A stretch of DNA of 64,000 nt, taken from an uncultured Bacilli bacterium (GTDB lineage Bacteria > Bacillota_I > Bacilli_A > RF39 > UBA660). The notes beneath the pieces are model-generated. The model had not been told where the DNA came from, searched no databases, and worked only from the letters and a program-made list of their open reading frames with translations. The stretch lies in the NCBI GenBank assembly GCA_934120265.1, contig CAKOTU010000004.1:285-64284 (forward strand), in the 5' to 3' direction. Below, piece by piece: positions 3,488 through 57,107 of this stretch (position 1 is the first letter of the stretch; every line of letters begins with the position of its first letter). Position numbers and translations under genes: made by a program.

Positions 3488-3678
3488 TTGAAAGATTAAA
3501 AATAATTATGTATAATTAATACAGTAAAGGTAGTGATAGTATGGTTAAAGAGATGAATATGAAACTAGCTCAAGCTTCAACCTGGGGGGGGGTTATTTAA
3601 TCATACTATAATATTAAATAGAAAAGAAAACACAAAGTTTCTAGATTTTTTGATAATCTAGATTTCTTTGTGTTTTTT
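3488..3678 (+). promoter_or_regulatory. Leader cassette copy 1: promoter, helix-enclosed mini-ORF with G9 tract, intrinsic terminator
   Basis: TTGAAA(3488)-17 nt-TATAAT(3511). Mini-ORF 3541-3600 encodes MVKEMNMKLAQASTWGGVI. G-run 3584-3592. atagtatggttaaa pairs with tttaatcatactat. Terminator 3630-3678: acacaaagtttctagat / atctagatttctttgtgt plus a T-run. Confidence 0.7.
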
Positions 3679-3823
3679 GTTGAACCTTTATGGATTTATA
3701 AAACAGAAAGAAGTGGTATTATAAGTACAATATTTTAGTGAAAGCTGTATTATGTCTATATGTTTATAATAAATAAAAAGGGGTATAATTAGAATGTATA
3801 ATAAAGAGAGGAGTAAGAAATAT

Positions 3824-5674
3824 ATGAAAAAGAAAGGATTTACTTTAATAGAGTTATTAGCAGTAATAGTAGTACTAGCAATAATAGCGCTAATCGCAAC
3901 ACCAATAGTAACAAGAGTAATAAATTCTAGTAAGGATTCTGCTAATAAAATAAGTGCAAGTAATTTTGCTAGTGAGGCTAATAAGTATGTAATAGAAGAA
4001 AGACTAAGTGGGAATATAAAGAATGGAAATATTTTTAATGAAGTGTCTAAAAGAATGAATGGTAAGAAACCTACTTCGGGAGTAGTTTATGCGGATGACA
4101 ATGGGAATATCGCTTTAGCTTTAGTATTTGATGATAAATGTTATACAAAGGAATACGGTAGTGATGAAATAAAAACAACTGACATTAATGAATGTCATGC
4201 CCCAGTAGATTATTTAGCACTTGGAAATACAGAGAATGATACAGAAGCAACATTCTTTAATGGACCTATCAAAAAAAGTAGTGTTGAAAAAATAGTGTTT
4301 GTAAATAGTAATCTTGTTCCAACAGATGCAATAGGAAAATGGAATGCAAGTGCAAGTGGTGAAGGAGATGTAGTTGCTTGGTACAAAGATGAAGATAAAA
4401 ATAACTTATACGAAGTATATATAGGTGGAAAAGACGGAGTAAAAGCTAATCCTAACTCATACAAATTATTTAATTATTTTACAAACTTAGTAAGTATAGA
4501 TTTAAAATATCTTGATACATCAAGCGTTATAGATATGTCTTTAATGTTTAATGATTGTTTAAATTTGACTACACTTAATTTAAGTAATTTTGATACATCA
4601 AGTGTTACAACTATGGCAGGTATGTTTCAGAACTGCTCCAAATTAATTACACTAGATTTAAGTAATTTTGATACTTCAAATGTTGTAAATATGAGAAATA
4701 TGTTTGCTTGGTGTTCAAATTTAAATGCCTTAGATTTAAGCAACTTTGACACGTCAAACGTTACTACTATGTATAGTATGTTTCAACTATGTTCAAACTT
4801 AACAACATTAGATGTAAGCCATTTTAATACATCAAACGTTACGAATATGTCATTTATGTTTAGCAAATGTTCAAGCTTAACAACATTAGATGTAAGTAAT
4901 TTTGATACATCAAACGTTACGAGTATGAAAGCTATGTTTCAACTATGTTCAAGTTTAACAACACTAGATGTAAGTAATTTTAATACATTGATGGTAACCG
5001 ATATGTCATATATGTTTAGCAAATGCTCAAGCTTAACAACGTTAGATGTAAGTAATTTTGACACCTCAAAGGTAACCAATATGGGATATATGTTTAATGA
5101 ATGCTCAAATTTGACAACATTAGATGTAAGCAATTTTGATACATCCAAAGTAACTGATATATCTCGTATGTTTCAAGGTTGTTCAAAATTAACCTATTTA
5201 GATGTAAGCAACTTTGATACATCGAATGTTACCAATATGCGTACTATGTTTCAAAAGTGTTCAAAATTAACTCAATTAGATGTAAGCAACTTTGATACAT
5301 CAAAAGTAACAGATATGGCTTATATGTTTTATGGATGTTCAAATTTAATAACATTAAACATAAGAGGCTTTAACACAACAAAAGTAACCGATATGAGTTA
5401 TATGTTTGAAAATTGTTCAAGGTTAACTAATTTAGATTTGAGTAGTTTTGAAACTAGTAAGTTACAAAATACGGAGCACATGTTTAATGGAAGTTCAAAA
5501 TTAGCAAATATTAATTTTTCAAAAGCAACATTTAACGCTGTAACTAAATATGATAAGATGTTTGGTGGATGTGGATTAATTAGTATTACAGTAAAAGATG
5601 ACGATGCAAAAACATTTATTGATGCTAGATTAAAAGATTCAAGTATTAATATTGAAGCAACAAAACAAAGCTAG
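3824..5674 (+). CDS. Modular prepilin-type protein: class III signal peptide, ~130-aa pilin-like head, 13 BspA/DUF285-type leucine-rich repeats
   Basis: MKKKGFTLIELLAVIVVLAIIALIATP. RBS gagaggag lies 10 nt before the ATG at 3824; the track start at 3794 has no RBS. The 25-aa periodic unit is LDVSNFDTSNVTNMxxMFxxCSxLTT. Confidence 0.85.
   Translation: MKKKGFTLIELLAVIVVLAIIALIATPIVTRVINSSKDSANKISASNFASEANKYVIEERLSGNIKNGNIFNEVSKRMNGKKPTSGVVYADDNGNIALALVFDDKCYTKEYGSDEIKTTDINECHAPVDYLALGNTENDTEATFFNGPIKKSSVEKIVFVNSNLVPTDAIGKWNASASGEGDVVAWYKDEDKNNLYEVYIGGKDGVKANPNSYKLFNYFTNLVSIDLKYLDTSSVIDMSLMFNDCLNLTTLNLSNFDTSSVTTMAGMFQNCSKLITLDLSNFDTSNVVNMRNMFAWCSNLNALDLSNFDTSNVTTMYSMFQLCSNLTTLDVSHFNTSNVTNMSFMFSKCSSLTTLDVSNFDTSNVTSMKAMFQLCSSLTTLDVSNFNTLMVTDMSYMFSKCSSLTTLDVSNFDTSKVTNMGYMFNECSNLTTLDVSNFDTSKVTDISRMFQGCSKLTYLDVSNFDTSNVTNMRTMFQKCSKLTQLDVSNFDTSKVTDMAYMFYGCSNLITLNIRGFNTTKVTDMSYMFENCSRLTNLDLSSFETSKLQNTEHMFNGSSKLANINFSKATFNAVTKYDKMFGGCGLISITVKDDDAKTFIDARLKDSSINIEATKQS
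4480..5520 (+). repeat. 13 in-frame ~75-bp LRR units (coordinates approximate)
   Basis: I counted 13 [NHGS]F[DNE]T[ST]xV motifs at 25-aa spacing. Confidence 0.8.
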
Positions 5675-5782: not shown

Positions 5783-6887
5783 ATGGAATTAAATGAAATA
5801 TATAGTATTTATAATAAATATCTAGAAAATATCCAAGAATTATGGAGGTTACTTTGACTTTGAAGCTAAAACCAAAGAAATAGAATCACTTGAGTTAAAG
5901 ATGAAAGATCCTAACTTTTGGAATGATAAACGAGAAAGCGAGAAAGCAATTTCTACTGCAAATTCATTAAAAGATATGATAGAAAAAGTAAAGAATCTAA
6001 AAGAAAAAATCGAAAGTAACTTTGAGATGATTGAAGAGTTAAGAAAATCTTATGATGAAGAATTAGTTGAGATGATTTCTAGTGATATAGAGGTTATAGG
6101 TAAGGAATTAGATGAAGTTGAAGTTTTAATGTTATTGTCTGGTCCATACGATAAAGATAACGCCATTGTAGAAATTCACTCTGGCGCAGGGGGAACAGAA
6201 GCTTGCGATTGGGCTAATATGTTATATCGTATGTATACAAGATGGTGTGAAAAGAAAAATTATAAAGTTGAGGTTATTGATAGTCAACCTGGAGAAGAAG
6301 TTGGAATTAAAAGTTTAACAATGTTTGTTAAAGGAATGAATGCTTTTGGATATTTAAAAAATGAAAAAGGAGTTCATCGTTTAGTTAGAATTTCTCCATT
6401 TGATTCAAATGCCAGAAGACATACATCATTTGCATCAATTGATGTAACCCCACTTATAGAAAATAGTGATATTAAAATAGAAATAAATCCTAGTGATATT
6501 AGGGTTGATGTTTATAGAAGTAGTGGTTGCGGTGGACAAGGCGTTAATACAACGGACTCGGCAGTAAGAATTACTCACTTTCCAACTAAGATTGTTGTTA
6601 CTTGTCAAAACGAACGTAGTCAAATACAAAATAAAGAAAAAGCTATGGAAGTTTTAAAAAGTAAGCTTTATCAATTGGAAATGGAAAAAAGAAATAATGA
6701 GTTAAAAGAACTAAAAGGAAATCAAAATGATATTAACTTTGGCTCACAAATAAGAAGTTATGTTATGTGTCCATATTCTATGGTAAAAGATCATAGAACT
6801 AATGTTGAAACAAGTAGCGTTGATAAAGTTTTAGATGGAGATATAGATTTGTTTATTAATGCTAGTTTGAAGGAAGTGAAGAAGTAA
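5783..6887 (+). CDS. prfB: Peptide chain release factor 2, expressed via programmed +1 frameshift
   Basis: ORF0 (5783-5854, MELNEIYSIYNKYLENIQELWRLL) ends at CTT TGA C. The +1 frame continues as DFEAKTKEIE... into the track ORF. GGQ motif present (SGCGGQGVNT). Confidence 0.95.
5844..5858 (+). promoter_or_regulatory. RF2 autoregulatory frameshift site
   Basis: Internal SD-like GGAGG (5844-5848), 3-nt spacer, then CTT TGA C (5852-5858). Confidence 0.9.
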
Positions 6888-9419: not shown

Positions 9420-9610
9420 TTGACAATAATTAATATTAAAAGGTATAATAAAAACAGTAAGGGTAGTGATAGTATGGTTAAAGAGATAAATAAAAATTTA
9501 ACTCAAAACCCGACATGGGGGGGGTATTTAATCATACTATAAAATTAAATAATAAAGAAAACACAAAGTTTCTAGACTTTTTAATAGTCTAGATTTCTCT
9601 GTGTTTTTTT
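9420..9610 (+). promoter_or_regulatory. Leader cassette copy 2 (G8 tract)
   Basis: TTGACA(9420)-18 nt-TATAAT(9444). Mini-ORF 9474-9542 encodes MVKEINKNLTQNPTWGGYLIIL. G-run 9517-9524. Terminator 9561-9610. Only ~52 nt separate the terminator from the ATG, and I see no second promoter. Confidence 0.7.
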
Positions 9611-9662
9611 GTTGTCCCTTTACTAAGTAAAGTAAATCTAAATAAAAGGAGGAGGAAATATT

Positions 9663-11438
9663 ATGAAAAATGAAAAAGGTTTTACTTTAATAGAGTTATT
9701 AGCAGTAATAGTAGTACTAGCAATAATAGCGCTAATCGCAACACCAATAGTAACAAGAGTAATAAATTCTAGTAAGGATTCTGCTAATAAAATAAGTGCA
9801 AGTAATTTTGCTAGTGAGGCTAATAAGTATGTAATAGAAGAAAGACTAAGTGGGAATATAAAGAATGGAAATATTTTTAATGAAGTGTCTAAAAGAATGA
9901 ATGGTAAGAAACCTACTTCGGGAGTAGTTTATGCGGATGACAATGGGAATATCGCTTTAGCTTTAGTATTTGATGATAAATGTTATACAAAGGAATACGG
10001 TAGTGATGAAATAAAAACAACTGACATTAATGAATGTCATGCCCCAGTAGATTATTTAGCACTTGGAAATACAGAGAATGATACAGAAGCAACATTCTTT
10101 AATGGACCTATCAAAAAAAGTAGTGTTGAAAAAATAGTGTTTGTAAATAGTAATCTTGTTCCAACAGATGCAATAGGAAAATGGAATGCAAGTGCAAGTG
10201 GTGAAGGAGATGTAGTTGCATGGTATAAAGATGAAGATAATAATAACTTATACGAAGTATATATAGGTGGAAAAGGTGGAGTAAAAGCTAATCCTAATTC
10301 TACTAAATTATTTAATTATTTTACAAACTTAGTAAGTATAGATTTTAAATATCTTGATACATCAAGTGTTACAAGTATGCAAGCAATGTTTCAGGACTGC
10401 TTTAAATTAACAACATTAGACTTAAGCGGTTTTGATACATCAAAAGTAACCGATATGGGTGGAATGTTTAATGATTGTTTAAATTTAACTACACTAGATG
10501 TAAGCAGTTTTAATACTTCAAACGTTACAAGCATGCGAGCTATGTTTCAAAAGTGTTCGAAACTAACTGCTTTGGATGTAAGCCATTTTGATACATCGAA
10601 TGTTACAAGTATGAGATATATGTTTAATAAATGCTCAAGTTTGACAATATTAGATGTAAGTCATTTTAATACATCAAATGTTACAAGTATGCAAGGAATG
10701 TTTGCCTGCTGTTCAAGTTTAACAACACTAGATGTGAGTCGTTTTAATACTTCAAACGTTACAAGCATGCGAGCTATGTTTGAACTTTGTTCAAATTTAA
10801 CAACATTAGATGTGAGTAATTTTGATACATCAGAGGTAACTAATATGACGTTTATGTTCAGTCAATGTTCAAGTTTAACAATATTAGATGTAAGCAACTT
10901 TGATACATCGAATGTTACAAATATGCATACTATGTTTCAGGACTGTTCTAAATTAAATGAATTAGATGTAAGTAACTTTAATACGTCAAGGGTAACTGAT
11001 ATGGGTGGTATGTTCAGTTTCTTAATAAATATTAAATCATTAGATGTTTCTCATTTTGATACATCAAATGTAACCAATATGAAATCTATGTTTAATGAAT
11101 GCAATAATTTGGAATCTTTAGATTTAAAAAATTTTAGTACAGGATTAGTAACAGATATGAGTTATATGTTTGAAAATTGTTATAAGTTGACTGATTTAGA
11201 TTTGAGTAGTTTTGAAACTAGTAAGTTACAAAATACGGAGCACATGTTTAATGGAAGTTCAAAATTAGCAACAATCAATTTCTCAAAAGCAACATTTAAC
11301 GCTATAACTAAATATGATAAGATGTTTGGTGGATGTGGACTGACTAGTATTACAGTAAAAGATGATGATGCAAAAACATTTATTGATGCTAGACTAAAAG
11401 ATTCAAGTATTAATATTGAAGCAACAAAGGTAAGCTAG
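9663..11438 (+). CDS. Modular prepilin-type protein, paralog of 3824-5674, with 12 BspA/DUF285-type LRR units
   Basis: MKNEKGFTLIELLAVIVVLAIIALIATP with RBS aaggaggagg. Nt 9681-10219 are identical to 3839-4377. The 3' ~290 nt are also near-identical. Confidence 0.85.
   Translation: MKNEKGFTLIELLAVIVVLAIIALIATPIVTRVINSSKDSANKISASNFASEANKYVIEERLSGNIKNGNIFNEVSKRMNGKKPTSGVVYADDNGNIALALVFDDKCYTKEYGSDEIKTTDINECHAPVDYLALGNTENDTEATFFNGPIKKSSVEKIVFVNSNLVPTDAIGKWNASASGEGDVVAWYKDEDNNNLYEVYIGGKGGVKANPNSTKLFNYFTNLVSIDFKYLDTSSVTSMQAMFQDCFKLTTLDLSGFDTSKVTDMGGMFNDCLNLTTLDVSSFNTSNVTSMRAMFQKCSKLTALDVSHFDTSNVTSMRYMFNKCSSLTILDVSHFNTSNVTSMQGMFACCSSLTTLDVSRFNTSNVTSMRAMFELCSNLTTLDVSNFDTSEVTNMTFMFSQCSSLTILDVSNFDTSNVTNMHTMFQDCSKLNELDVSNFNTSRVTDMGGMFSFLINIKSLDVSHFDTSNVTNMKSMFNECNNLESLDLKNFSTGLVTDMSYMFENCYKLTDLDLSSFETSKLQNTEHMFNGSSKLATINFSKATFNAITKYDKMFGGCGLTSITVKDDDAKTFIDARLKDSSINIEATKVS
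10322..11285 (+). repeat. 12 in-frame ~75-bp LRR units (coordinates approximate)
   Basis: I counted 12 F[DNSE]T[ST]xV motifs, one unit (25 aa) fewer than the paralog. Confidence 0.8.
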
Positions 11439-16431: not shown

Positions 16432-18540
16432 ATGAAGAATAATAAGGGTTTTGCAATAAGTAGTGTTGTTTATGCCATGTTAATACTTTTTTTAGGACTT
16501 ATCTTATTAATTTTAGGGAATCTAGCTAGTAGAAAGGCTATGTTTGATAAGGAAAAAAATGAAATACTTATGAGATTTAACGGTTATGAAGGGACCTTAT
16601 GTACTTTGATTGAAGGTGGGGCATATGATATTGGTTCTAAATATGAATGTGAATTAGGTGATAATGATCCAAAAATATTTTATGTTTTGGAATCAAGTGG
16701 AAGTAATATATCACTAATTATGAGTGCTAATGTTGATTCAAACGGGAAAGCTATAACTTCAACAAACATTCCTGATGACAAGGGTTTTTCTGCATGGGTG
16801 ACTCTAGGGGATTATATGTCCGCAGGAGGAACGGCATCTGATTTTGGTAGTGTTGGTGAGAATAGTCTTGGCCCACTTACAGCTTTAAAAAAACTAAAAG
16901 AGTTTACAAAACCATGGAAGAAATTAGCGCCATCACAAATTGTATTACCGACAGCAAATCAGGTAGCAACGGCAGGTGGAGATACAAAGTGGAGCGAAAG
17001 TTCAACCGGCAATGGATTTAGCTCTGCAACGTGGTTATATGATAATTTAAATGGAACTACTAATGCAGTTTCAGGTATATATGGTTATTGGACATCAACA
17101 GCTGTTGCATCCACTTCGAATCGTGCTTGGCGTGTGTACTCAACAGGTAACTTTCTTTCATATTTTGTTTCTTATGATGAAGGATACGGTATACGTCCAG
17201 TAATCACAATTTCAAAATCACAACTAGAAGTACCAATATTGTGTGTAGCTAAGACTACAGCAACAACAGGAAATGTATCTCGAGGAAGATATGAGTATGG
17301 TGATGAATACGAATGTGAATTAGGTGATGGACAAAAAAGAACATTCTTTATTTTGGATAAAACATCTACAGAAGTATCTTTAATAATGAGTGAGAACTTG
17401 GGAGCAGAAGCTGGATGGTGCAGTGATGATGATTGTAAAACAGACAATGTATGGGATAATACAAAAGGTCCAATAACTGCAAAAAGTGAACTTGAAAAAA
17501 GAACTACTAGTTGGAGTAAAATATCAAATAAAACAAAGATTACATTACCAACAGCACAACAAGTAGCAAAAGCCTCTGGCGAAACATTTAATAATTCTTC
17601 TGTTTCTGGGTTAGCAAAATGGTTGTGTGGGAATTTAAAAAGTGTTGTTGGATATTGGACATCAACACAGTTTATTGAAAATACATATGGTGCTTGGTAT
17701 GTTGGCTATAGCAATGATATTCGTGTTGATAGTATTGGAAATGACTATGATTATGGTATACGTCCAGTAATCACAATACCAAAAGCACAAATAAAATCAC
17801 CAAAGGTACAAAAATATAGAAATGGTAGTGAAGTATATTTTAATGTAACAACAGGTGTAAAATGTACATCATCAGATTATACAGAAACACAAAGCAATAT
17901 AGGTGTAAATAGTGGATGTATGAAGTTCTATATTTTTAATGATGATGGTGGTGACACATTAAATTTAATTTTAGATCATAATACAACTGCAACAATTTTA
18001 TGGAATTCAAGTGGAAGTAGTACTAGCGGTCCAAAAGAAGCGTTAACACAATTAAAAACTGATACAGAAAATTGGAATGGAACGGAAACTCCAACAAACT
18101 ATGCGATTGATCAAACAGGCCAAACAAGTGGTGCAAAATATATAATAGATTATAGTGCATACAAGGCAAGATTTATAACAGCACAGGAAGTAGCAACAAT
18201 CACAGGAAATACATCTTGGAATGAAAAAAATGCAAGTAGCGTATTTTACTTTGATACAAATGCAACAAGTAATAGTTCAACATGTCAAAGTGGGGATATA
18301 AGTGGATGCGCTTATGGATGGCTATATGATAGAACAAAACCTGATTGTACGACATATGGATGTAAAAACAATTCAGATAAGTCAACATTGGGATATTGGA
18401 CAGTTTCTCCTCGTGCTGAAAGTATTAGAGAAAATTGGTGCGTTGCTTATGAAGGTTATCTTGGCGATTATATTGTTAACTTCCCAGCTTATTATGGTAT
18501 ACGCCCAGTTATAGAAATATCGGCAAAGAAACTTTTATAA
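16432..18540 (+). CDS. Three-module surface protein with a degenerate pilin-like N-terminus (no Glu+5)
   Basis: MKNNKGFAISSVVYAMLILFLGLILLIL. There are two type-A modules (YECELGD...LIMS...LPTA.QVA...GYWTST...YGIRPVITI) and one type-B module homologous to the 26834 C-terminus. RBS agaggtga. Confidence 0.75.
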   Translation: MKNNKGFAISSVVYAMLILFLGLILLILGNLASRKAMFDKEKNEILMRFNGYEGTLCTLIEGGAYDIGSKYECELGDNDPKIFYVLESSGSNISLIMSANVDSNGKAITSTNIPDDKGFSAWVTLGDYMSAGGTASDFGSVGENSLGPLTALKKLKEFTKPWKKLAPSQIVLPTANQVATAGGDTKWSESSTGNGFSSATWLYDNLNGTTNAVSGIYGYWTSTAVASTSNRAWRVYSTGNFLSYFVSYDEGYGIRPVITISKSQLEVPILCVAKTTATTGNVSRGRYEYGDEYECELGDGQKRTFFILDKTSTEVSLIMSENLGAEAGWCSDDDCKTDNVWDNTKGPITAKSELEKRTTSWSKISNKTKITLPTAQQVAKASGETFNNSSVSGLAKWLCGNLKSVVGYWTSTQFIENTYGAWYVGYSNDIRVDSIGNDYDYGIRPVITIPKAQIKSPKVQKYRNGSEVYFNVTTGVKCTSSDYTETQSNIGVNSGCMKFYIFNDDGGDTLNLILDHNTTATILWNSSGSSTSGPKEALTQLKTDTENWNGTETPTNYAIDQTGQTSGAKYIIDYSAYKARFITAQEVATITGNTSWNEKNASSVFYFDTNATSNSSTCQSGDISGCAYGWLYDRTKPDCTTYGCKNNSDKSTLGYWTVSPRAESIRENWCVAYEGYLGDYIVNFPAYYGIRPVIEISAKKLL

Positions 18541-18591: not shown

Positions 18592-18812
18592 ATAAAAACT
18601 TTGAACTTGAGGAGTAAACTAAAGCGTTTTAAAGAGAGTCTATGGTTGGTGGAAATAGATAAATTAATTGGTTGAAGGTAGCAAGCCAGTTGAATATCTA
18701 AGTAAATAGGATATTACGTATATTATGCGTTAAATAATTAAGGTGTAGAAATACATAAATTAAGGTGGTACCACGTAAACTCACGTCCTTATCTAGGATG
18801 TGAGTTTTTTAT
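18592..18812 (+). promoter_or_regulatory. T-box leader controlling valS
   Basis: Promoter TTGACA(18556)-18-TATAAT(18580). AGAGAG plus distal loop GGTTGGTGGAA. F-box-like GCGTTAA. T-box AAGGTGGTACCACG. Terminator actcacgtcct/aggatgtgagt plus tttttt. The likely specifier is GUA within gaaGGUAGc, but the register is ambiguous. Confidence 0.85.
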
Positions 18813-18832
18813 ATTTTAATAGGAGGAATATT

Positions 18833-21373
18833 ATGTTAGAAAGTAAATATAATCATTTAAGTGTTGAAGATGGAAAATATGAAAATTGGAAAGAGAAGGG
18901 ATATTTTGAGTCTGGTGATTTAAGTAAGAAACCATACTGTATTGTTATTCCACCTCCAAATGTAACAGGTAAATTACATTTAGGCCATGCTTGGGATACA
19001 ACACTACAAGATATTATTATTCGTTATAAAAGAATGGATGGATATGATGCCCTTTGGGTTCCTGGTATGGATCATGCTGGAATAGCAACTCAAGCTAAAG
19101 TCGATAAAAAATTAAAAGAACAAGGCATAAAACCACGTGAAATGGATCGTGAAGAGTGGTTAGAACATGCATGGGCTTGGAAGAGAGAATATGCAGATAA
19201 TATTCATGCACAATGGGCTAAAATGGGATTAAGTTTGGATTATACTAAAGAAAGATTTACTTTGGATGAAGGGCTTAGTAATGCAGTTAAACATGTCTTT
19301 GTAACTTTATATAATGAAGGATTAATATATAGAGGAGAAAGAATTATTAACTGGGATCCTGAAGCTATGACAGCGCTTTCTAATGAAGAAGTAATATATA
19401 AAGATGTAGAAGGTGCATTCTACCACATTAAGTATTTTATAGAAGGAACTAATGATTATTTAGAAGTAGCAACAACTCGTCCTGAAACATTGTTTGGAGA
19501 TACTGCTGTTGCTGTTAATCCTAGTGACGATCGTTATAAACATTTAATAGGAAAAAATGTAGTTCTTCCTATTGTTAATAAGTTAATACCTGTAGTTGGT
19601 GATGAACACGCTGATCCAGAATTTGGTACAGGAGTTGTTAAAATAACTCCAGCTCATGATCCTAACGATTTTGAAGTAGGAAATAGACATAATCTTGAAA
19701 GAGTTATCGTTATGAATCCTAATGGTACTATGAATAAGAATGCTGGCATTTATGAAGGAATGGATCGTTTTGCTTGTCGTGAGAAACTTGTAAATGATTT
19801 AAAAGAACAAGACTTACTTATATCTATTGAACCAATTGTTCATAGCGTAGGTCATAGTGAAAGAACAGATGTAATGGTTGAACCTTATTTATCTAAACAA
19901 TGGTTTGTTAAAATGAGACCTCTTGCAGATAGAGTATTAGAAAATCAAAAAAACAAAGATACAAAGGTTAATTTTGTTCCAGAAAGATTTGAAAAAACTA
20001 TGAATCACTGGATGGAGATTACTTATGACTGGTGTATTTCTCGTCAACTTTGGTGGGGACATAGAATTCCTGCTTGGTATAAAGGTGAAGAAGTATATGT
20101 TGGCATAAATCCACCTGAAGGTGAAGGTTGGGTACAAGATTCAGATGTATTAGATACTTGGTTCTCTAGTGCCTTATGGCCATTTTCAACCCTTGGTTGG
20201 CCAGAAAAAACAGATTTACTAGCACGTTATTATCCTAATAATGTTTTAGTAACAGGATATGATATAATTCCTTTCTGGGTAAATAGAATGACTTTCCAAG
20301 GACTTCACTTTACAGATCAAAGACCATTTAAAGATTGCCTAATACATGGACTTATTCGTGATAAACAAGGACGTAAAATGAGTAAATCATTAGGTAATGG
20401 TGTAGATCCTATGGATGTTATAGAAAAATATGGATGTGATTCATTAAGATTTTTCTTAACAACATCTACTGCTCCTGGTATGGATTTAAGATATGATGAA
20501 GAAAAAGTTGCTTCAACTTGGAACTTTATTAATAAACTTTGGAATGCATCACGTTTTGTTTTAATGAATATTGAGGACTTAACAAAAGATACTTATACAT
20601 TAGATAACTTATCGATTAGTGATAAATGGATTTTAACAAAACGAGAAAACTTGATTAAGACAGTTAGAAAGCATATGGATAATTATGAATTTAACGTTGT
20701 TGGTACAGAACTTTATAGTTTTATTTGGAATGATTTCTGTGATTGGTATATAGAACTTGCTAAAGGAAATATGAATAATACAACAAAGAGTGTACTTCTT
20801 ACTGTATTAACAGATATATTAAAGATGTTGCATCCATTTATGCCATATGTAACAGAAGAAATATATTTGATGTTACCAATACATGATGAATCAATCATGA
20901 TAAGTTCTTACCCAGTATATAATAAAGATTTAGTATTCGAAGACTCTAAAGAATTAGATAATATTATTGATTTTATTGTTAAAGTAAGAACTGCTAAACT
21001 AGAACATAAGATACCAAAAGATTCAAAAGTATATTTTGAAGGTAATTATAAAGATTTAATTTTAAAATCTCTTCGTGTTGCTTCTGAATATTTAATAGAT
21101 AATAGTGATATGGATGGAGTAGAAGTAATTAGTTCAAATAAAAATTATAGAATTAAGTATATGTTTGATACTTCTATTGACAAAGAAAAAGAGTTAGAAT
21201 CACTTCAAAAAGAAAAAGAAAACTTAGAAAATTCTATTGCTAGAAGAAAGAAACTTTTAAGTAATGAAAACTATGTAAGTAAAGCTCCAGAAAATATTGT
21301 TAACAAAGAAAGAGAAGATTTACTAAAAGAAGAGAATGAATTAAAATTAATTTTAGAAAAAATGGGCAATTAA
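18833..21373 (+). CDS. valS: Valine--tRNA ligase
   Basis: HIGH motif ([12 protein letters not shown]), KMSKS, and a C-terminal coiled coil. ATG at 18833 follows aggagg; the track start at 18800 is a GTG inside the T-box terminator. Confidence 0.95.
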
Positions 21374-22105: not shown

Positions 22106-22468
22106 ATGAAAATGAATAAGAAAGGTTTTACTTTAATTGAATTATTAGCAGTTATCGTAGTATTAGCTATTATCGCTTTAATCGCTACTCCAATTGTTAT
22201 GAGTACAATTAATAAAGCTCAAGAAGGTGCAAATAAGAGATCTGTAGAAGGTTACATGAAAGCTTATGAAGCAGCATATTATGAATATATGCTTGAAAAT
22301 GGTGGTGCTGAACCAGCAACTAAATTAACTTCAGGTATTGATTATAATGGTGCTACAGTTACTTGTGAAACAGTTACAGTAACAGCTGATAAAAAATTCA
22401 GTGCTACTTGTACAGTAAATGGTAAGACTTACAAATATGAAAATGGAAAAGCTGATAATAATAAATAA
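22106..22468 (+). CDS. Short type IV pilin / pseudopilin-like protein (120 aa)
   Basis: MKMNKKGFTLIELLAVIVVLAIIALIATPIV, then a ~85-aa head with 2 Cys. RBS ggtggtga, an upstream TTGACT-type promoter and its own terminator. Confidence 0.85.
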   Translation: MKMNKKGFTLIELLAVIVVLAIIALIATPIVMSTINKAQEGANKRSVEGYMKAYEAAYYEYMLENGGAEPATKLTSGIDYNGATVTCETVTVTADKKFSATCTVNGKTYKYENGKADNNK

Positions 22469-26508: not shown

Positions 26509-26701
26509 TTGATATTAAAAAATGAATATTGTATAATAAAGACAGTAAAGGTAGTGATGGTATGGTTAAAGAGAAAAGTATAAACATAACTCAAAACTCA
26601 ACCTGGGGGGGGGGTATATTTAATCATACTATAATAATAAATAAAAAAGAAAACACAAAGTTTCTAGACTTTTTTGTAGTCTAGATTTCTTTGTGTTTTT
26701 T
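26509..26701 (+). promoter_or_regulatory. Leader cassette copy 3 (G10 tract; mini-ORF reads into the terminator)
   Basis: TTGATA(26509)-17-TATAAT(26532). Mini-ORF 26562-26684 encodes MVKEKSINITQNSTWGGGIFNHTIIINKKENTKFLDFFVV. G-run 26605-26614. Terminator 26653-26701. The stop TAG at 26682 lies in the 3' arm of the terminator. Confidence 0.7.
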
Positions 26702-26833
26702 GTTGACCTTTATAGGAAAGGAGTTGTTGTATAAGTACATAAAAATGCCAAAAACATGTATTATGGCTGGATGTTTATTATGAACAAAACAGGGTATAAT
26801 TAAAGTATAAAGTAAATAAGGAGGTAAGAAAAG

Positions 26834-27970
26834 ATGAAAAAGAAAGGATTTACTTTAATAGAATTACTAGCGGTAATAGTAGTATTAGCAATAATAGCAT
26901 TGATTGCAACACCAATAGTAATGAACACAATTAAAAAATCACAAAAAGGAGCAGCTGAGAGAAGTGCAGATAACTATATTGATGCTGTAGAAACAGCAGT
27001 TGCAACAGCAAGACTAGATAATAATGATGTTCCAGATGGAACATACACAATAGATGAAAATGGAAATCTATTAGTACCAAGTTTACCAAATGGCAAATTA
27101 ACAATCGAAATGAATGGAAATAAACCAAAGGGTGGAACAATCACAATAAAGAATGGGCAAGTAACAACTGACTCAAAGATGACAGTAGGAAGTTATGAAG
27201 TATCATACAACCCAACAACAAATAAATATGAAGCGTCAGAAGAAGGAACATCAACTAAAACATATGCAAACGGAGAAGTAGTATATTTTAACGTAACAAC
27301 AGGAGAAAAATGTTCAGCATCAGATTATACAGATGATATCATGGAAAAAGACGGCTGTTTGAAATTCTATGCATTTAATGATGAAGGTGGAAACAAAGTA
27401 AATTTATTACTAGATCATAATACAACAGCAACAGTAGCATGGAATTCAAGTAAAAGTAATACAAATGGTCCAAAAGAAATATTAGATAGTTTAAAAACAG
27501 CTACAGCGTCATGGAAAGGAACGGAAACTCCAGCAAATTATACAATGGATCAAACGAGTAAAACAAGTAAAGCAAGCTATACAATAGATTATAGTGGATA
27601 TAAAGCAAGATTAATAACAGCGCAAGAAATAGCTCAAATAGTAGGCAATACATCTTGGGATGAGAAAAGTGCTAGTAGTGAATATTATTTTGATTCTAAA
27701 TCAAGTTTTGCAAGTTCTACATGTACAAGCGGAAATACAACAGGTTGCCAATATGGATGGCTTTACGATAAAACAAGCGCAAGTTGTACAACATATGGAT
27801 GTTTAAATAATTCAGGTAATAGATACTGGACAGCTTCTTCTTATAGCGGTGATTCTAGTAATGCTTGGTATGTGGATTATAGTGGCTCAATAGGAAATGA
27901 TGGTGTTAACTATCCTGGTTTCTATGGTGTACGTCCAGTTATAGAGGTATTAAAATCTAAACTTTCGTAA
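26834..27970 (+). CDS. Modular prepilin-type protein with a type-B DUF1566-like C-terminal module
   Basis: MKKKGFTLIELLAVIVVLAIIALIATPIVM. The pilin head contains LTIEMNGNKPKGGTITIKNGQV. The C-terminal ~240 aa are collinear with module 3 of 16432-18540 and end in YGVRPVIEV. Confidence 0.85.
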   Translation: MKKKGFTLIELLAVIVVLAIIALIATPIVMNTIKKSQKGAAERSADNYIDAVETAVATARLDNNDVPDGTYTIDENGNLLVPSLPNGKLTIEMNGNKPKGGTITIKNGQVTTDSKMTVGSYEVSYNPTTNKYEASEEGTSTKTYANGEVVYFNVTTGEKCSASDYTDDIMEKDGCLKFYAFNDEGGNKVNLLLDHNTTATVAWNSSKSNTNGPKEILDSLKTATASWKGTETPANYTMDQTSKTSKASYTIDYSGYKARLITAQEIAQIVGNTSWDEKSASSEYYFDSKSSFASSTCTSGNTTGCQYGWLYDKTSASCTTYGCLNNSGNRYWTASSYSGDSSNAWYVDYSGSIGNDGVNYPGFYGVRPVIEVLKSKLS

Positions 27971-29890: not shown

Positions 29891-30306
29891 CAATAGGTGA
29901 ATTAACAAATATAGCTAATGAGTATTTAAATGAAAATATTTCATTAAGAGAATTATCAGCTCGTCATGGAATATCTAAATCAACTTTGGTTAGGTACTTT
30001 AATAGGCAACAATTGATTGTTTTGCCATATAATTTGCAGATGAAAGTGGATGCTAAAAAAGAGAAAAACTGGATTGATGGTAAATCGACTAGCGGTAATT
30101 TAGGACATAAAACGGCTACAAAGGAACAAATACAAGCCATGGCTAAAATGGCGATAGAAAATAATCTGTCACTAAGAGAACTAGCTAATGCTATTGATGT
30201 AAGTTATACAACTTTATATTCGTTTTTTACTGTAGAAAATTTAGGGCTTGATTTATATCAACAAGTTTTAAATTTGTATAGTGAAAATAAAGCAAAAAGA
30301 AAATAA
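29887..30306 (+). CDS. Small DNA-binding protein with two HTH-like repeats
   Basis: [21 protein letters not shown] and [21 protein letters not shown]. Overlaps the lepA stop. Confidence 0.45.
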
Positions 30307-30423
30307 TCATTTTGATGTGAACCCCGTTTCTTGGACAAAAGAAGCGAGGTTTTTATATGTATAGTATTATATTTGCTTATAAATAATCATTTTGTTATAA
30401 TATTTATAGAAAAGAGAATGTTT

Positions 30424-33253: not shown

Positions 33254-33929
33254 GTTGATCGTTGTTGAAGGGACTGATTGTTCTGGAAAAGAAACTCAGA
33301 CTAATCTTTTATTAACTAATCTACATAATGATAATATAAAGGTTGAAAAATTTAGCTTTCCGAATTATCAATCACCAACTGGAAAAATAATAGGTGGACC
33401 TTATTTAGGAAAAAGTTATATTTGTGATGGTTGGTTTCCTGAGGGAGCTCCAAAAGTAGATCCTAAAGTTGCCGCTCTATATTATGCAGCTGATAGAAAA
33501 TATAATATTTATAAGATAAATTTTTTGCTCGAAAATGGTGTAAATGTTATTTTAGATAGATATGTATATTCCAATATGGCTCATCAAGGTGGAAAAATAA
33601 AAGATAATAATGAAAGATTTGCTATGTATGATTGGCTTGATAAGTTGGAATTTGGTTTGTTAGAACTTCCTGAGGCAGATATTAAAGTGTTCTTACATTT
33701 ACCTGTTGAACAAGCAGCTAAGCTTCGCATGGGAAGAGAAGAAGCTCTAGATGAGAACGAAAAGGACATAAATCATTTAAAAGATGCAGAAAGAGCTTAC
33801 AAGGAAATAGCTAATAAATATGGTTTCAAAACAATTGAGTGTAATGTTGGTAATGATATAAGAACTATTGACACTATTCAAGATGAATTATATGATTTTA
33901 TAAAGAAAGAGATTTCTTTCAGAAATTAG
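33243..33929 (+). CDS. tmk: Thymidylate kinase-like protein (variant P-loop)
   Basis: VVEGTDCSGKETQ (canonical form is EGxDGxGK[ST]T). The DRY motif is present (ILDRYVYSN). Confidence 0.6.
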   Translation: MRGKLIVVEGTDCSGKETQTNLLLTNLHNDNIKVEKFSFPNYQSPTGKIIGGPYLGKSYICDGWFPEGAPKVDPKVAALYYAADRKYNIYKINFLLENGVNVILDRYVYSNMAHQGGKIKDNNERFAMYDWLDKLEFGLLELPEADIKVFLHLPVEQAAKLRMGREEALDENEKDINHLKDAERAYKEIANKYGFKTIECNVGNDIRTIDTIQDELYDFIKKEISFRN

Positions 33930-34096
33930 TTATTGTATAATAAAGACAGTAAGGGTAGTGATAGTATGGTTAAAGAGACAAATGTATTAATTAAAAAATC
34001 AACCTGGTGGGGTATTTAATCATACTATAATAATAAAAAATAAAGAAAACGCAAAGTTTCTAGACTTTTTAGTAGTCTAGATTTCTTTGTGTTTTT
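33913..34096 (+). promoter_or_regulatory. Leader cassette copy 4 (interrupted G tract)
   Basis: TATAAT at 33936; the -35 region falls inside the tmk 3' end. Mini-ORF 33966-34019 encodes MVKETNVLIKKSTWWGI. The tract is ggtgggg at 34006-34012. Terminator 34049-34096. Confidence 0.65.
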
Positions 34097-34228
34097 ATGT
34101 GTACCTTTATAGGAAAGAAGTTGTTGTATAAGTACATAAATGTGTCGAAAACATGTATTATGACTAGATGTTTATAATAAACAAAATAGGGTATAATTAA
34201 AATGTAAATCATAAGGGAGGTAAAAAAG

Positions 34229-35164
34229 ATGAAAAAAAGAGGATTTACTTTAATAGAGTTACTAGCGGTAATAGTAGTATTAGCAATAATCGCACTTATT
34301 GCAACACCAATAGTAATGAACACAATAAAGAATGCTAAGAAAGGAGCTGCAGAAAGAAGCGCAGATAGCTATCTTAAACAATTAGAATTAACAATAGCTG
34401 AAACTAGGTTAGAAAATAAACCAGTATCTGATGGTACATATTCTATAAATGCAGAAGGAAATCTAGAAGGAAATGGTTTAATAACACCATTAGTAGTAGA
34501 AATGAATGGAAATAAACCAACTGGAGGAACAGTAGTAATAACAAATGGCGAGGTATCACCATCAGAAACAAATATGATAATAGGAGAATATAATTTACGT
34601 TATAATGAAACATCAAAGAGCTATACTGCCGAAGTAGCAGTTAAATTATGTAAAAAAGCATCAAGTGTAAATTTAAGCGATTTAAAATTAGGTGATGAAT
34701 TTACATGTGATTTAGGTGATGAAGAATCAACTAAAAACTTAGTATTCTATGTGTTAGAAAAAAATGGTTCACAAGTATCTTTGATTATGAATAAAGTATT
34801 CACAACTCCAGCAGGAGATAAAGTTCCATATTCAATGAAAGCTAATGTATTTAAACTTTTCAAATATACTAAACTAGATGAATCACAAATTACTTTACCA
34901 AGTGGAGAGCAAATTGCCGCAGCAAGTAATAATACAACTTGGACACCAAGTGGTTCTAATACAGCTTTAGTTACAAATCAAATGCCAAATTGGTTAAAAA
35001 CAAATCTAGAGGTTACTGGTACATACTGTTATTGGACATCTACTGAGTTTGATTCTAGTAAACAATGGGGTGCTGGATTAAAAGGTTTATATGCTGAAAC
35101 AGCAACATCTGCAACTTGTGGATTCCGTCCAGTTATAACAGTCTCAACATCTGATTTAGGTTAA
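34229..35164 (+). CDS. Modular prepilin-type protein with one type-A DUF1566-like module
   Basis: MKKRGFTLIELLAVIVVLAIIALIATPIVM. The pilin head contains VVEMNGNKPTGGTVVITNGEV. Module: GDEFTCDLGD...SLIMN...ITLPSGEQIAAA...CYWTST...CGFRPVITVS. Confidence 0.85.
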   Translation: MKKRGFTLIELLAVIVVLAIIALIATPIVMNTIKNAKKGAAERSADSYLKQLELTIAETRLENKPVSDGTYSINAEGNLEGNGLITPLVVEMNGNKPTGGTVVITNGEVSPSETNMIIGEYNLRYNETSKSYTAEVAVKLCKKASSVNLSDLKLGDEFTCDLGDEESTKNLVFYVLEKNGSQVSLIMNKVFTTPAGDKVPYSMKANVFKLFKYTKLDESQITLPSGEQIAAASNNTTWTPSGSNTALVTNQMPNWLKTNLEVTGTYCYWTSTEFDSSKQWGAGLKGLYAETATSATCGFRPVITVSTSDLG

Positions 35165-39023: not shown

Positions 39024-39601
39024 ATTTAGAAGAGTATGCACATAAAAATAATATTCCAATTATGATGAAAGATGGAATTGAATTTTTATTGGATTATATT
39101 AAAAATAATAATATCAAAAACATTTTAGAAATAGGTTCAGCAATTGGTTATTCAGCGATAAGAATGGCTTTAGTAGATGATAGTGTTAGAGTTACAACCA
39201 TTGAAAGAGATGAAGAGAGATATAAAGAAGCTTTAAAAAATATAAAAGATTTTAATTTGAATAGTAGAATAAATGTTATTTTGAGTGATGCCTTTGATGT
39301 AGAACTTAACGATAAATATGATTTAATATTTATTGATGCAGCTAAGAGTCAATACATTAAATTTTTTGAAAAGTTTAAAGAAAATTTAAACGATAATGGA
39401 GTAATTGTCTCTGATAATTTAAATTTTCATGGACTTGTTCATGCAGATGAAAAAGATCTTAGTAGAAATGTCAGAGGTCTTGTAAGAAAATTAAATAATT
39501 ATGTTGACTATTTAAAAAATAATAAAGAATTTGAAACATTATTTTATGATATTGGTGATGGAGTCAGTATCAGTAAAAAGGTAGGTGTTAAAGATGAATA
39601 A
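39008..39601 (+). CDS. Class I SAM-dependent O-methyltransferase (YrrM/TrmR-like)
   Basis: ILEIGSAIGYSAIRMA and IFIDAAKSQY, plus synteny. Confidence 0.8.
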   Translation: MVRILDLEEYAHKNNIPIMMKDGIEFLLDYIKNNNIKNILEIGSAIGYSAIRMALVDDSVRVTTIERDEERYKEALKNIKDFNLNSRINVILSDAFDVELNDKYDLIFIDAAKSQYIKFFEKFKENLNDNGVIVSDNLNFHGLVHADEKDLSRNVRGLVRKLNNYVDYLKNNKEFETLFYDIGDGVSISKKVGVKDE

Positions 39602-40754
39602 AAAAGGATTTACTCTAGTTGAACTTATTGGAGTGGTAGTTATATTAGGACTTATTGCTTTAATAGCGTTTCCAGCTTTATTAAATCAAATTAATACATC
39701 AAAAAATGAAGTAAGTGAGTCAGTAAGGGAATTAGTTATTAGTTCTTCAAAGTCGTATGTTGAGGATGATACTCAACTTGCACCTAAAAAATATTGTATA
39801 ACATTGGAAGAACTTATTGATGGTGGTTATTTAACTGAAGGAATTGTTAGTTCAGAACGTGATAAATTACAAAATAAAAGAGTGATGGTTACTTATTATA
39901 ATAACAAATATAATTATGAATTAGTTGATAGTAAAGATTGTTATATTTGTAAAGGTGTAAAAGCAGTAACAGTAGATGATGCAACCGTTCCTACAGGTCA
40001 GTATAATACTGGAGATGAATATACGTGTGAAGTAAAAAAAGGAACAGAGTATAACTTCTTTGTTATTAGTAGTGATGAAAATAATGTTAATTTATTAATG
40101 GATAGTAACGTTAATTATTATGGTGAATCTGTAAAACTTGTTGATGGAAAAATACCAGATGATATGGAAGGTGATTCAAAGAAAAAGGGTTTAGTTGCTT
40201 TTATATCAGAAGCAGATTATCTAGCTGCAGGTGGATTAAAAGACGATTTTTTTCTTGAGGGTTATGGAACAGGTAATTTAGAAAAGGGTCCGATAACTGT
40301 ATTAAATTATTTAAATTTTGCGACCTCTTTTTGGACCAATATAGAAAATTTAAATGAGGTATATGATTATAGTGTTGATAAAAATGGATATACAATTCGT
40401 AATGAGTTGCAATCTTTAGAAGTTAGACTTAACGGGAAATCTAGACTTATGACTGGAACAGAGTTATTTTCTACAGGGTTTCCATTTGTAACAAAAAAGT
40501 GGATGACAGTGAATTTAAATCCTATAAGCGAAAAAGAGGGAATATATGGTTATTGGAATTTAGCTCCTTATGGCAAGTATGATGTATGGAATGTCAATAG
40601 TGATGGTGGAGATGCAGATGGAACTATAACTATTTATGATGAAAAACAAGGTTCTGTATCAGTTGAAGCTGATGATTTATCTTTTGATAATTATTGTGGA
40701 GTTAGACCTGTAATCACTGTTTCTAAAAGTATGATATACAATGATAACAATTAA
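39594..40754 (+). CDS. Modular prepilin-type protein (second N-terminal subtype) with one type-A DUF1566-like module, embedded in the yrrM-yrrN junction
   Basis: MNKKGFTLVELIGVVVILGLIALIAFPAL. The ATG overlaps the yrrM stop (ATGAATAA) and follows aggtaggtg. Module: GDEYTCEV...NLLMDSN...GYWNL...CGVRPVITVS. Confidence 0.85.
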   Translation: MNKKGFTLVELIGVVVILGLIALIAFPALLNQINTSKNEVSESVRELVISSSKSYVEDDTQLAPKKYCITLEELIDGGYLTEGIVSSERDKLQNKRVMVTYYNNKYNYELVDSKDCYICKGVKAVTVDDATVPTGQYNTGDEYTCEVKKGTEYNFFVISSDENNVNLLMDSNVNYYGESVKLVDGKIPDDMEGDSKKKGLVAFISEADYLAAGGLKDDFFLEGYGTGNLEKGPITVLNYLNFATSFWTNIENLNEVYDYSVDKNGYTIRNELQSLEVRLNGKSRLMTGTELFSTGFPFVTKKWMTVNLNPISEKEGIYGYWNLAPYGKYDVWNVNSDGGDADGTITIYDEKQGSVSVEADDLSFDNYCGVRPVITVSKSMIYNDNN

Positions 40755-46171: not shown

Positions 46172-46537
46172 ATGAAAAAGGGATTTACTTTGATAGAACT
46201 ATTAGCTGTTTTAGTTGTTTTAGGATTACTTGGATTAATAGTTATTCCTGTTGTAGATAAAATATTAAAAGATAGTAGAAATGATTTATATGATTTACAA
46301 ATTAAAAATATAGAAGATGGTGCCAGAAATTGGGCTGCTAAAAATCCACTAACACTTCCTGAAAATGGAAATTCAACAACAAAAACAATAGCTGAATTAG
46401 AGGAAGAAGGATTTATTGAGGTTGATGTAAAAAATCCTAAGACTGGTGAAGTTTTTTGCGACGATTCTTATGTAACAATAACTAATACAGGTAGTGGTTT
46501 TACTTATAGTTATGATGCTGATTCAGGAAGTTGTTAA
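46172..46537 (+). CDS. Short prepilin-type (pseudopilin/ComGC-like) protein immediately upstream of murE
   Basis: MKKGFTLIELLAVLVVLGLLGLIVIPVV. RBS gaggtga. 11 nt to the murE ATG, with no terminator between. Confidence 0.8.
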   Translation: MKKGFTLIELLAVLVVLGLLGLIVIPVVDKILKDSRNDLYDLQIKNIEDGARNWAAKNPLTLPENGNSTTKTIAELEEEGFIEVDVKNPKTGEVFCDDSYVTITNTGSGFTYSYDADSGSC

Positions 46538-56889: not shown

Positions 56890-57107
56890 ATATTAAAAGA
56901 CAAACGAAGAGAGTAGTAATAATAAATTATGTTTAGAGAAGAAGTGGTTGGTGAAAACTTCTAATAAAATATTATGAACTTGCTTTTCTAGTTGCTTATA
57001 GCCGTAGTTCTGCGTTAAAGATTTGAGAGTGTAATAAAATATTATGAAATAAGGTGGTACCGCGATTAATCGTCCTTATATTTATAATATTTTTGTTTTT
57101 TAAGGAG
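56890..57107 (+). promoter_or_regulatory. T-box leader (Leu, specifier CUU) upstream of a small membrane ORF and leuS
   Basis: Promoter TTGAAT(56855)-17-TATAAT(56878). GAAGAGAG, AGAGA bulge, distal loop GGTTGGTGAAA, specifier context atGAA-CTT-g, F-box-like GCGTTAA, T-box AAGGTGGTACCGCG. No canonical terminator is present. Confidence 0.8.

Follow-up and report, generated by a model that had tools for sequence, protein, structure and literature searches.

A guanine homopolymer in a leader reading frame upstream of modular pilin genes of uncultured gut Bacilli: a candidate phase-variable attenuator

The pilC and opc genes of Neisseria and the poly-G genes of Campylobacter are contingency loci that vary by slipped-strand mispairing, and a frameshift in the poly-C tract of siaD in Neisseria meningitidis raises Rho-dependent termination. 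The pyrBI attenuator of Escherichia coli acts through ribosome occlusion, while the cwpV switch of Clostridioides difficile acts through terminator formation. In the rph-pyrE attenuator of E. coli, moving the stop codon relative to the attenuator alters read-through (PMC2784333), and a G-repeat of variable length in the leader of the Helicobacter pylori gene tlpB is bound by RepG, a C/U-rich small RNA (sRNA) (PMC8295292). The present analysis concerns a leader cassette of about 190 nucleotides (nt) that occurs four times in the genome of an uncultured Bacilli bacterium (contig CAKOTU010000004.1, positions 285 to 64,284, of assembly GCA_934120265.1). The whole analysed stretch, referred to as the window, is 64 kb with 27.8% GC, and all four cassettes are on the + strand. 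Each unit consists of a promoter, a tiny open reading frame (ORF) with a run of G, and then a terminator. With a probability of about one half, the cassette is a slipped-strand phase-variable leader ORF that would permit read-through to a pilin gene only when the frame is long.

The four copies at 3488-3678, 9420-9610, 26509-26701 and 33913-34096 had been proposed in an initial annotation of the window, and each was found in place 5' of a type IV pilin-like gene. Mean column identity in their alignment is 85%. The conserved core GGTAGTGATRGTATGGTTAAA (21-nt core) occurs exactly four times at up to 3 mismatches, compared with 0.00 expected, and an nhmmer profile search with a profile built from 40 relatives gave no fifth copy in the window. 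The leader begins with a near-consensus promoter (promoter P1), which in a consensus scan matched at 11-12 of 12 positions in copies 1-3, as had been proposed; copy 4 has the -10 box alone, because the stop codon of tmk occupies the -35 position. Then follow a Shine-Dalgarno-like AAAGG 10-11 nt 5' of the invariant leader ATG, 13 variable codons, and ACC-TGG leading into a G homopolymer. By folding, the order 3' of a 14-bp helix (helix P1) is an A-rich linker and then a long hairpin with a U run, which was recognised earlier and is upheld here; the analysis reads it as a terminator.

Copy 1 shows the arrangement of these parts. Promoter P1 (TTGAAA-17-TATAAT, 3488-3516) has 11 of 12 consensus matches. 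The Shine-Dalgarno-like site of the leader ORF, AGTAAAGG (3523-3530), is also the 5' arm of another, long-range helix, P0, and pairs with the P0 3' arm CCTTTAT at 3685-3691. The predicted 5' arm of helix P1 (3536-3549) has the ATG at 3541 inside. The leader ORF as assembled (3541-3600) is in a short frame and translates to the 19 amino acids MVKEMNMKLAQASTWGGVI. It includes a G9 tract (3584-3592), and its stop codon TAA (3598-3600) is within the predicted 3' arm of helix P1 (3596-3609). The intrinsic terminator is at 3623-3678, and the TAG at 3659-3661 that would end the long frame is in its 3' upper arm.

The run GGGGGGGG, previously listed as one sequence motif among others, is instead a hypervariable homopolymer within the ORF and sets its reading frame. 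In the window it is G9 in copy 1, G8 in copy 2, G10 in copy 3 and an interrupted GGTGGGG in copy 4. The three uninterrupted tracts are the sole G or C homopolymers of at least 7 in the 64 kb. For comparison, 56 distinct leaders were assembled from related uncultured gut Bacilli by an exact-pattern scan of species-representative genomes, by a two-anchor pattern scan of metagenomes, and from contigs encoding pilin homologues or called mini-ORFs. In 43 of 54 copies the first G of the run is 43 nt past the A of the ATG. Read in the long frame, the ORF continues through the 3' arm of helix P1, then the linker and the terminator 5' arm, which adds 22-24 codons and gives 36-41 amino acids ending in PTWG(G)LFNHTIILNNKENTKFLDFLVV; in every copy the stop is in the loop or the 3' arm of the terminator. 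The two short frames end before the terminator. One (frame 1) meets a TAA within the 3' arm of helix P1, usually after 19 amino acids (ending WGGVI), approximately 23-26 nt before the terminator stem, and the other (frame 2) a TAA just past that arm (ending GGYLIIL), approximately 12-15 nt before the stem, both distances being counted on the consensus. Short-frame products have 17-23, rarely 27, amino acids.

Tract length and frame are associated. Leaders with tracts of at least 8 G comprise 24 in frame 1, five in frame 2 and eight in the long frame; the short-frame majority (29/37) includes 24 of exactly G9. Exactly G9 was found in 27 of 54 copies, which come from numerous loci, samples and species. 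Tracts that are short or interrupted (G5, G6, GGGAGGTG, GGGTGGG, TTGGTATTG and others) are in the long frame in 13 of 16 cases (p = 1e-4 against one third), and more variants locked in the long frame were present among profile-search matches. The 11 loci of assembly OLGM01 repeat the pattern, with eight G9 in frame 1, one in frame 2 and two in the long frame, both of the latter with short tracts. In the window, copies 1 and 2 are short-frame, copy 3 (G10 plus TATA) is long-frame, and copy 4 is interrupted and short-frame.

One and the same cassette can carry different tracts. Flank and variable region are common to L016, with G8, and L040, with G9, and the variable region is shared between L027 (G5) and L053 (G9). 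The called peptides P0122, P0123 (WGGGL) and P0125 (WGGL) have N-termini identical to those of the G9 copies L032, L054 and L018, and G11 and G8 alleles were deduced from their Gly counts. The cassette tract alleles recorded are G5, G6, G8, G9, G10 and G11. An over-long homopolymer, length differences between alleles and the resulting change of frame would place the G tract among contingency loci. It resembles the loci of Neisseria (pilC/opc) and Campylobacter (poly-G) in the over-long G run inside an ORF, the length polymorphism, the frame that defines the state, the association with a surface-protein family, and the predominance of putative OFF members. It differs from them in being located in a separate leader ORF of about 40 codons and not in the regulated gene or its promoter; all that is conserved in this ORF is the extent of its reading with respect to a terminator.

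An invertible switch was considered and rejected, as the G run is on the coding strand in 56/56 copies in a search that was anchored on the arms and blind to orientation between them. The cwpV and flgB switches of C. difficile are similar in giving heritable ON/OFF control of surface structures from within a leader in Firmicutes. They act after transcription initiation (PMC8890394 for flgB). Both use site-specific DNA inversion by a recombinase, whereas the mutable element of the cassette is a homopolymer.

A pilin-like gene, starting with M..GFTLIELLAVIVVLAIIALIATPIV, follows the cassette in all 39 copies with enough downstream sequence. The gap between terminator and pilin gene is 47-54 nt in 23 of these (type 2) and 121-145 nt in 16 (type 1). 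The claim of a leader dedicated to this pilin subfamily is thus sustained by all readable copies, and of the two functions offered with it, attenuator or small RNA/peptide gene, the attenuator is the better one. In the window, PF07963 (N_methyl) is above threshold in all four downstream genes, which have the N-terminus MKKKGFTLIELLAVIVVLAIIALIATPIV, and DUF285/LRR domains are additionally present in two of the four. A class III signal with N-methylation motif, followed by a hydrophobic helix, would identify the products as type IV pilins. The gene of copy 1 (3824-5674) encodes a modular pilin with N_methyl and DUF285/LRR and is of type 1, with a 145-nt spacer containing GGGTATAAT.

Copy 2 has its promoter P1 at 9420-9449 (TTGACA-18-TATAAT, 12 of 12 consensus matches), the Shine-Dalgarno-like site and P0 5' arm AGTAAGGG at 9456-9463, the 5' arm of helix P1 at 9469-9482 (by folding) with the ATG at 9474, and the G8 tract at 9517-9524. 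Its leader ORF as assembled (9474-9542; 22 amino acids, ending WGGYLIIL) is in a short frame. The 3' arm of helix P1 is at 9527-9540, the terminator at 9554-9610 with the long-frame stop TAG at 9590-9592 inside, and the P0 3' arm CCCTTTAC at 9616-9623. The downstream modular pilin gene (9663-11438; N_methyl and DUF285) is of type 2, with its ATG 52 nt past the terminator.

Copy 3 is the only cassette of the window that is in the long frame as assembled. The consensus scan gave promoter P1 at 26509-26537 (TTGATA-17-TATAAT); the Shine-Dalgarno-like site and P0 5' arm are at 26544-26551, the 5' arm of helix P1 at 26557-26570 with the ATG at 26562, the G10 tract at 26605-26614, the 3' arm of helix P1 at 26619-26632, the terminator at 26646-26701 and the P0 3' arm at 26707-26713. 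The leader ORF (26562-26684) ends with TAG at 26682-26684 in the terminator. The four mini-ORF peptides are as written in the initial annotation, and this third one extends to 40 amino acids, ending in WGGGIFNHTIIINKKENTKFLDFFVV. A pilin-like gene with N_methyl follows at 26834-27970. In the comparison of strains only one further sample covered copy 3, with the same G10.

Copy 4 is probably a relic. Its -10 box TATAAT is at 33936-33941, the arms of helix P1 are at 33961-33974 and 34015-34028, and the leader ORF (33966-34019; 17 amino acids) is in a short frame. The interrupted tract (34006-34012) is not slippery and is the same in 5 other samples, copy 4 being invariant in the comparison of strains. 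The terminator is at 34042-34096, the P0 3' arm at 34104-34110, and the downstream pilin-like gene with N_methyl at 34229-35164. In L007-L010 the orthologue of copy 4 is broken by a stop at codon 7, and its terminator is decaying. A dead tract together with decay at this locus would be expected where selection on an unused switch is relaxed. In the syntenic relative L066/L067 the loci of copy 1 and copy 2 are both in the long frame.

The window has eight pilin-like N-termini in total, with a cassette before these four only. The other four (GFTL[IV]EL...) are at 22106-22468, 39585-40754, 46172-46537 and 50398-51984. The gene at 22106 has an identical 25-residue N-terminus, yet an ordinary promoter region, and the ORF at 39585-40754 overlaps the end of the methyltransferase gene upstream.

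The distribution of stop codons indicates that the leader ORF is kept open. Between the ATG and the tract, 37 distinct regions have four in-frame stops, as compared with 77 and 57 in the other frames, and the four are mostly from the relic L007 lineage. Among representatives less than 70% identical to each other, 10 of 11 are open (joint chance approximately 10^-4.7). Downstream of the tract, 40 sequences have 42 stops in the long frame, the natural stop only, against 179 and 95 in the other two. The only indels between helix P1 and the terminator in 43 aligned copies are three independent ones of 3 nt (L029, L053:302 and the L007 family), and 1-nt indels are confined to the terminator loop. 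By these measures the mini-ORF is very probably translated.

The peptide itself is another matter. Codon positions between the ATG and the tract are equally variable with no third-position bias, and the conserved 3' half has synonymous and non-synonymous changes at 9:25, compared with 18% expected (p = 0.16). The use of both ACC and ACA for the conserved Thr, which had been put forward as a sign of selection on the peptide, does not stand against these two results. A conserved peptide was dropped as the principal interpretation, the codon-position entropy and the synonymous and non-synonymous counts giving no clear purifying selection. Constraint appears to fall on the open frame, while constraint on the amino acid sequence is not demonstrable from these comparisons.

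The 14-bp helix P1, ATAGTATGGTTAAA/TTTAATCATACTAT, was proposed in the initial annotation to sequester the mini-ORF start codon. It does hold the ATG and is present in both the minimum-free-energy (MFE) and the consensus folds; compensatory double changes are missing. No covariation was found in its 14 bp, only wobble-compatible single changes, and the helix is therefore compatible with the data but not provable by covariation. The predicted fold is stable (z = -5.2). Helix P0, formed by CCTTTAC/T just 3' of the U run and the 5' site AGTAAAGG, is 90% paired, has two compensatory pairs in one lineage, and overlaps the leader ribosome-binding site. In MFE folds of the read-through leader P0, helix P1 and the terminator are all present and the pilin ribosome-binding site is free.

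No antiterminator helix was seen by reading or in the predicted folds, no systematic search having been made, and the cassette is therefore not an attenuator of the trp type. Nor was a segment complementary to the terminator 5' arm seen upstream by reading; the only codon run is Gly, and it derives from the tract. The trp, his and leu attenuators are like the cassette in that a promoter is followed by a short leader ORF and then, ahead of the structural gene, by a terminator. They differ from it by an antiterminator pairing and a regulatory codon run, neither of which was seen here, and in the cassette the leader helix buries the start codon instead of pairing with the terminator.

In each copy the leader stop of the long frame is in the terminator, an overlap of ORF and terminator of the pyrBI/pyrE type. 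Upstream of copy 2, ftsX is closed by a terminator of its own, and no promoter-like site was found between the leader terminator and the pilin ATG of copy 2, the only type 2 copy scanned. In the favoured model, slipped-strand mispairing at replication would alter the tract length and with it the frame. With a long-frame tract, the first ribosome behind RNA polymerase would cover the terminator 5' arm as synthesis reaches the 3' arm and the U run; the hairpin would be blocked and transcription would enter the pilin gene (ON). With either short frame the ribosome would come off before the terminator, the hairpin would form, and only an RNA of about 155 nt would be made (OFF). Helix P1 would bury the ATG once its 3' arm is transcribed, limiting leader translation to a co-transcriptional window, and in the read-through mRNA P0 would also bury the leader ribosome-binding site and base-pair the 5' end. 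Each cassette would thus gate one pilin paralogue, heritably on or off, and with many loci per genome, mostly OFF, a population would show varying subsets of modular pilins. The combined reading, in which the G tract in the leader ORF decides whether the pioneer ribosome invades the terminator and so sets a heritable ON/OFF state gene by gene across a dispersed pilin family, with gene and promoter left unchanged, is put forward tentatively.

The E. coli attenuators of pyrBI and rph-pyrE are like the cassette of the favoured model in having an upstream ORF that runs into or up to an intrinsic terminator, so that the distance between stop and hairpin decides, a physical principle established for rph-pyrE (PMC2784333). 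In rph-pyrE, downstream expression falls when a frameshift brings the stop further upstream, and an antiterminator helix is not needed (PMC2784333). Those systems sense uridine triphosphate via polymerase pausing, whereas the cassette has no evident metabolite link; and the rph-1 frameshift is a laboratory accident, while that of the cassette appears to be built in by means of a mutable tract and is repeated at many loci. In siaD of N. meningitidis, as in the model for the cassette, a slippage frameshift leads to an early stop and more transcription termination. There the termination is Rho-dependent and takes place inside the regulated gene, with no dedicated leader ORF that has an intrinsic terminator.

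Several points weigh against the favoured model. The step from ribosome to terminator is purely an inference. In Bacillus-type bacteria transcription and translation are reported to be uncoupled, and ribosome occlusion would therefore be weaker unless the polymerase pauses. A formed helix P1 would block initiation, which leaves a short translation window. Conservation is so strong that, in the 3' half, the demands of an open frame partly coincide with those of an RNA structure. G9 is strikingly uniform in OFF copies (24/29), although random slippage should scatter the lengths more, and there may be selection for G9 itself. The copies are phylogenetically non-independent, and the p-values are therefore optimistic. 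Finally, the type 1 copies (16/39) have an extra spacer of 120-145 nt with a conserved TATAAT, and their pilin genes may be independent of read-through. In the window these spacers are at 3679-3823, 26702-26833 and 34097-34228. They are conserved across genomes in the pattern GTTGTTGTATAAGTACA-N15-TGTATTATGACTAGATGTTTA-N15-GGGTATAATTAAA, include TAAGTACA / TGTATTA, a palindrome that is imperfect, as well as a perfect -10 box that has no -35, and could consist of an operator and an activator-dependent second promoter.

A diverged homologue, L069:16449-16650 (JGI sample 3300029305; 48 bits), has the same arrangement and lends the favoured model independent support. Its promoter is TTGACA-17-TAAAAT, the ATG is in a helix, 13 variable codons follow, ACC-TGG and G9 are at the same 43-nt offset, and helix P1 has a 2-nt bulge. 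The lower stem of its terminator is of different sequence. Only G8 or G11 would give a frame (29-30 amino acids) that reaches the terminator base, while G7, G9 and G10 stop approximately 28-32 nt earlier. The long-frame peptide YLNNHILTKKRE differs from that of the other copies, with the same geometry. The gene 3' of this cassette (16795-18021) does not encode a pilin; its product has a Sec-type signal peptide and no Pfam match. Pilin genes may therefore not be the only ones to have the switch.

The best surviving alternative, although rather unlikely, is that the cassette is a phase-variable small-protein gene. The product of 36-41 amino acids (M-V-K/N-x10-PTWG-LFNHTIILNNKENTKFLDFLVV) would be what functions, for instance as an accessory or regulatory peptide specific to the pilin, and would be switched by the G tract; the hairpin would be a plain terminator and the pilin would be expressed by leak-through or from its own promoter. 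The frame is upheld through the 3' half, the C-terminal half is well conserved, and in L066:9982 three changes in that half are synonymous, one of them at the cost of a G-C pair of the terminator. Gene callers have predicted such ORFs in public data; 11 proteins were found by word-indexed search and 11 by a HMMER profile search of 1.84 billion cluster representatives. The second -10 box kept by type 1 copies would also fit. Against this, synonymous changes are not in overall excess in the counts given above, and the conserved residues are encoded exactly by the 3' arm of helix P1 and the 5' arm of the terminator, so that constraint on the RNA accounts for them. The 10 residues at the N-terminus and those at the junction are unconstrained (WGGL, WRR, WEVL, TLVL, VLVMV), the product has no match to a Pfam or NCBIfam family, the pilin gene of copy 2, the type 2 copy scanned, has no promoter besides promoter P1, and the L069 peptide is different in an unchanged geometry. 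Two more specific identities were rejected. A double-glycine leader peptide is contradicted by the origin of the Gly residues from the tract only, locked variants reading TLVL, TRVL, WEVL, WRR and VLVMV, and a type I toxin by a peptide that is hydrophilic on reading and by the lack of any antisense unit seen.

Programmed recoding in place of heritable variation is improbable. G9 would then be the functional state and set the level of read-through, either by slippage of RNA polymerase or by -1 frameshifting of a fixed fraction of ribosomes, stimulated by helix P1, which starts 3-4 nt downstream of the run. The prevalence of exactly G9, which extends to L069, and the stable helix immediately 3' of the run are in its favour, and since nine G's match the length of the RNA-DNA hybrid, polymerase slippage could shift a fixed fraction of transcripts into the long frame. 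Polymerase slippage is, however, best documented for A/T runs. The G5, G6, G8, G10 and G11 alleles of the same cassettes exist at the DNA level, and decayed tracts are locked in the long frame, as expected if the long frame is the ON allele. In conjunction with the favoured model, one may speculate that near-universal G9 gives a non-heritable trickle of ON expression through polymerase slippage or helix-stimulated -1 frameshifting.

It is quite improbable that the cassette is a structured non-coding RNA, that is, an sRNA of about 155 nt or a ligand- or sRNA-responsive leader in which the G run is a recognition element and the ORF is incidental. The strong promoter and terminator, the fold z-score and helices P1 and P0 are compatible with it, and there is a precedent for length-variable leader G repeats that act via an sRNA (PMC8295292). 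The G-repeat of H. pylori tlpB, paired by RepG (PMC8295292), is like the cassette tract a length-variable G homopolymer in a leader, and it tunes the downstream gene; it is untranslated, while the cassette tract is in a maintained frame and has no partner sRNA identified. A quick look for C-rich pyrimidine runs gave no obvious intergenic partner of the G run in the window and is uninformative. The statement in the initial annotation that the element could not be matched to a riboswitch consensus (c-di-GMP I/II, preQ1, guanidine, ZTP) agrees with a check against Rfam 15, which gave no match at gathering scores; at E up to 10 only noise was obtained (best 23.7 bits against a threshold of 70). 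An RNA function is further opposed by helix P1 having no covariation, by a loop of this helix that is hypervariable yet an open frame, which is hard to explain without translation, by linker indels that are all of 3 nt, and by the lack of any alternative antiterminator pairing noticed.

A passively co-duplicated upstream region, in which cassette and pilin 5' end are homology arms kept similar by a gene conversion that reshuffles pilin modules, and in which neither G tract nor ORF regulates anything, would account for the very high nucleotide identity (terminator loop flanks included) and for the strain differences described next, but it is very improbable, as concerted evolution leaves unexplained why a genome of 28% GC should have a run of G9, and equally the statistics on the frame, the indels of 3 nt and the L069 architecture with its different terminator.

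Orthologous chromosomal positions have different variable regions and different pilin genes between strains and species. The locus of window copy 1 bears a copy-2-like cassette in L006 (3488-3678 compared with L006:2676-2919). This suggests that cassette and pilin module are swapped as one between loci by frequent recombination or gene conversion.

The scan of species-representative genomes gave five copies in a metagenome-assembled genome (MAG) named 'uncultured Bacilli bacterium', plus a single copy in 'uncultured Tenericutes bacterium UMGS688', and the two-anchor scan of metagenomes gave 42 stretches, a few of which are unrelated chance matches. Wherever the record or the sample names tell, the leaders originate from human-gut samples. 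Viral contigs searched for the cassette gave 0 matches, and a phage origin was rejected. In UMGS688 (L004:3080-3150) the downstream pilin gene is frameshifted a few codons past GFTLIELLAVI, which is either a pseudogene or an assembly error. Sporulation genes (YunB, CotE, GerA) and T-box leaders in these genomes place them in the low-GC Firmicutes.

Other features of the window are of known kinds. Besides noise, Rfam searches of the window returned just two T-boxes, unrelated to the cassette. One T-box leader (18592-18793; Rfam 118 bits) is 5' of an 857-amino-acid ORF (18800-21373) whose orthologue in the syntenic L066 has valyl-tRNA-synthetase domains. The other (56900-57080; Rfam 106 bits) is 5' of a 114-amino-acid ORF (57116-57460) followed by a 798-amino-acid ORF (57460-59856), which has class I tRNA-synthetase domains in L068 and is probably leuS. 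The release factor 2 gene prfB (5784-5860 and ORF 5901-6887) has the known programmed +1 frameshift site CTT TGA C after GGAGG, which indicates that TGA is a stop codon in this genome. Relatives (L007:5314-6082) have a Fic-domain gene and a 55-amino-acid ORF on the opposite strand between a 139-amino-acid ORF and a radical-SAM gene. This Fic-domain indel island, near the 139-amino-acid ORF downstream of lepA, is absent from the window at approximately 30306-30331.

The design appears to join two known kinds of system, a homopolymer contingency locus and an occlusion attenuator of the pyrBI/pyrE type, so far in a narrow clade of gut Bacilli. No account of a mutable leader-ORF tract gating an intrinsic terminator was found in the literature, which is weak evidence as coverage is incomplete, and no precedent was found in the literature on DUF285 pilins.

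If the favoured model is true, it would join slipped-strand phase variation with ribosome-dependent attenuation, and would be a case of translation-coupled control of termination in low-GC gut Bacilli, where such coupling is debated. At about 190 nt the cassette is small and modular and could serve as a compact stochastic switch. A homopolymer in a seemingly non-coding leader of a MAG may have a function and is not to be written off as an artefact of assembly. For the organisms themselves, the model would explain the variation of a large set of modular pilin adhesins, with DUF285/LRR and other C-terminal modules, in an uncultured spore-forming lineage of the human gut, and it would have a bearing on colonisation, immune evasion and phage evasion.

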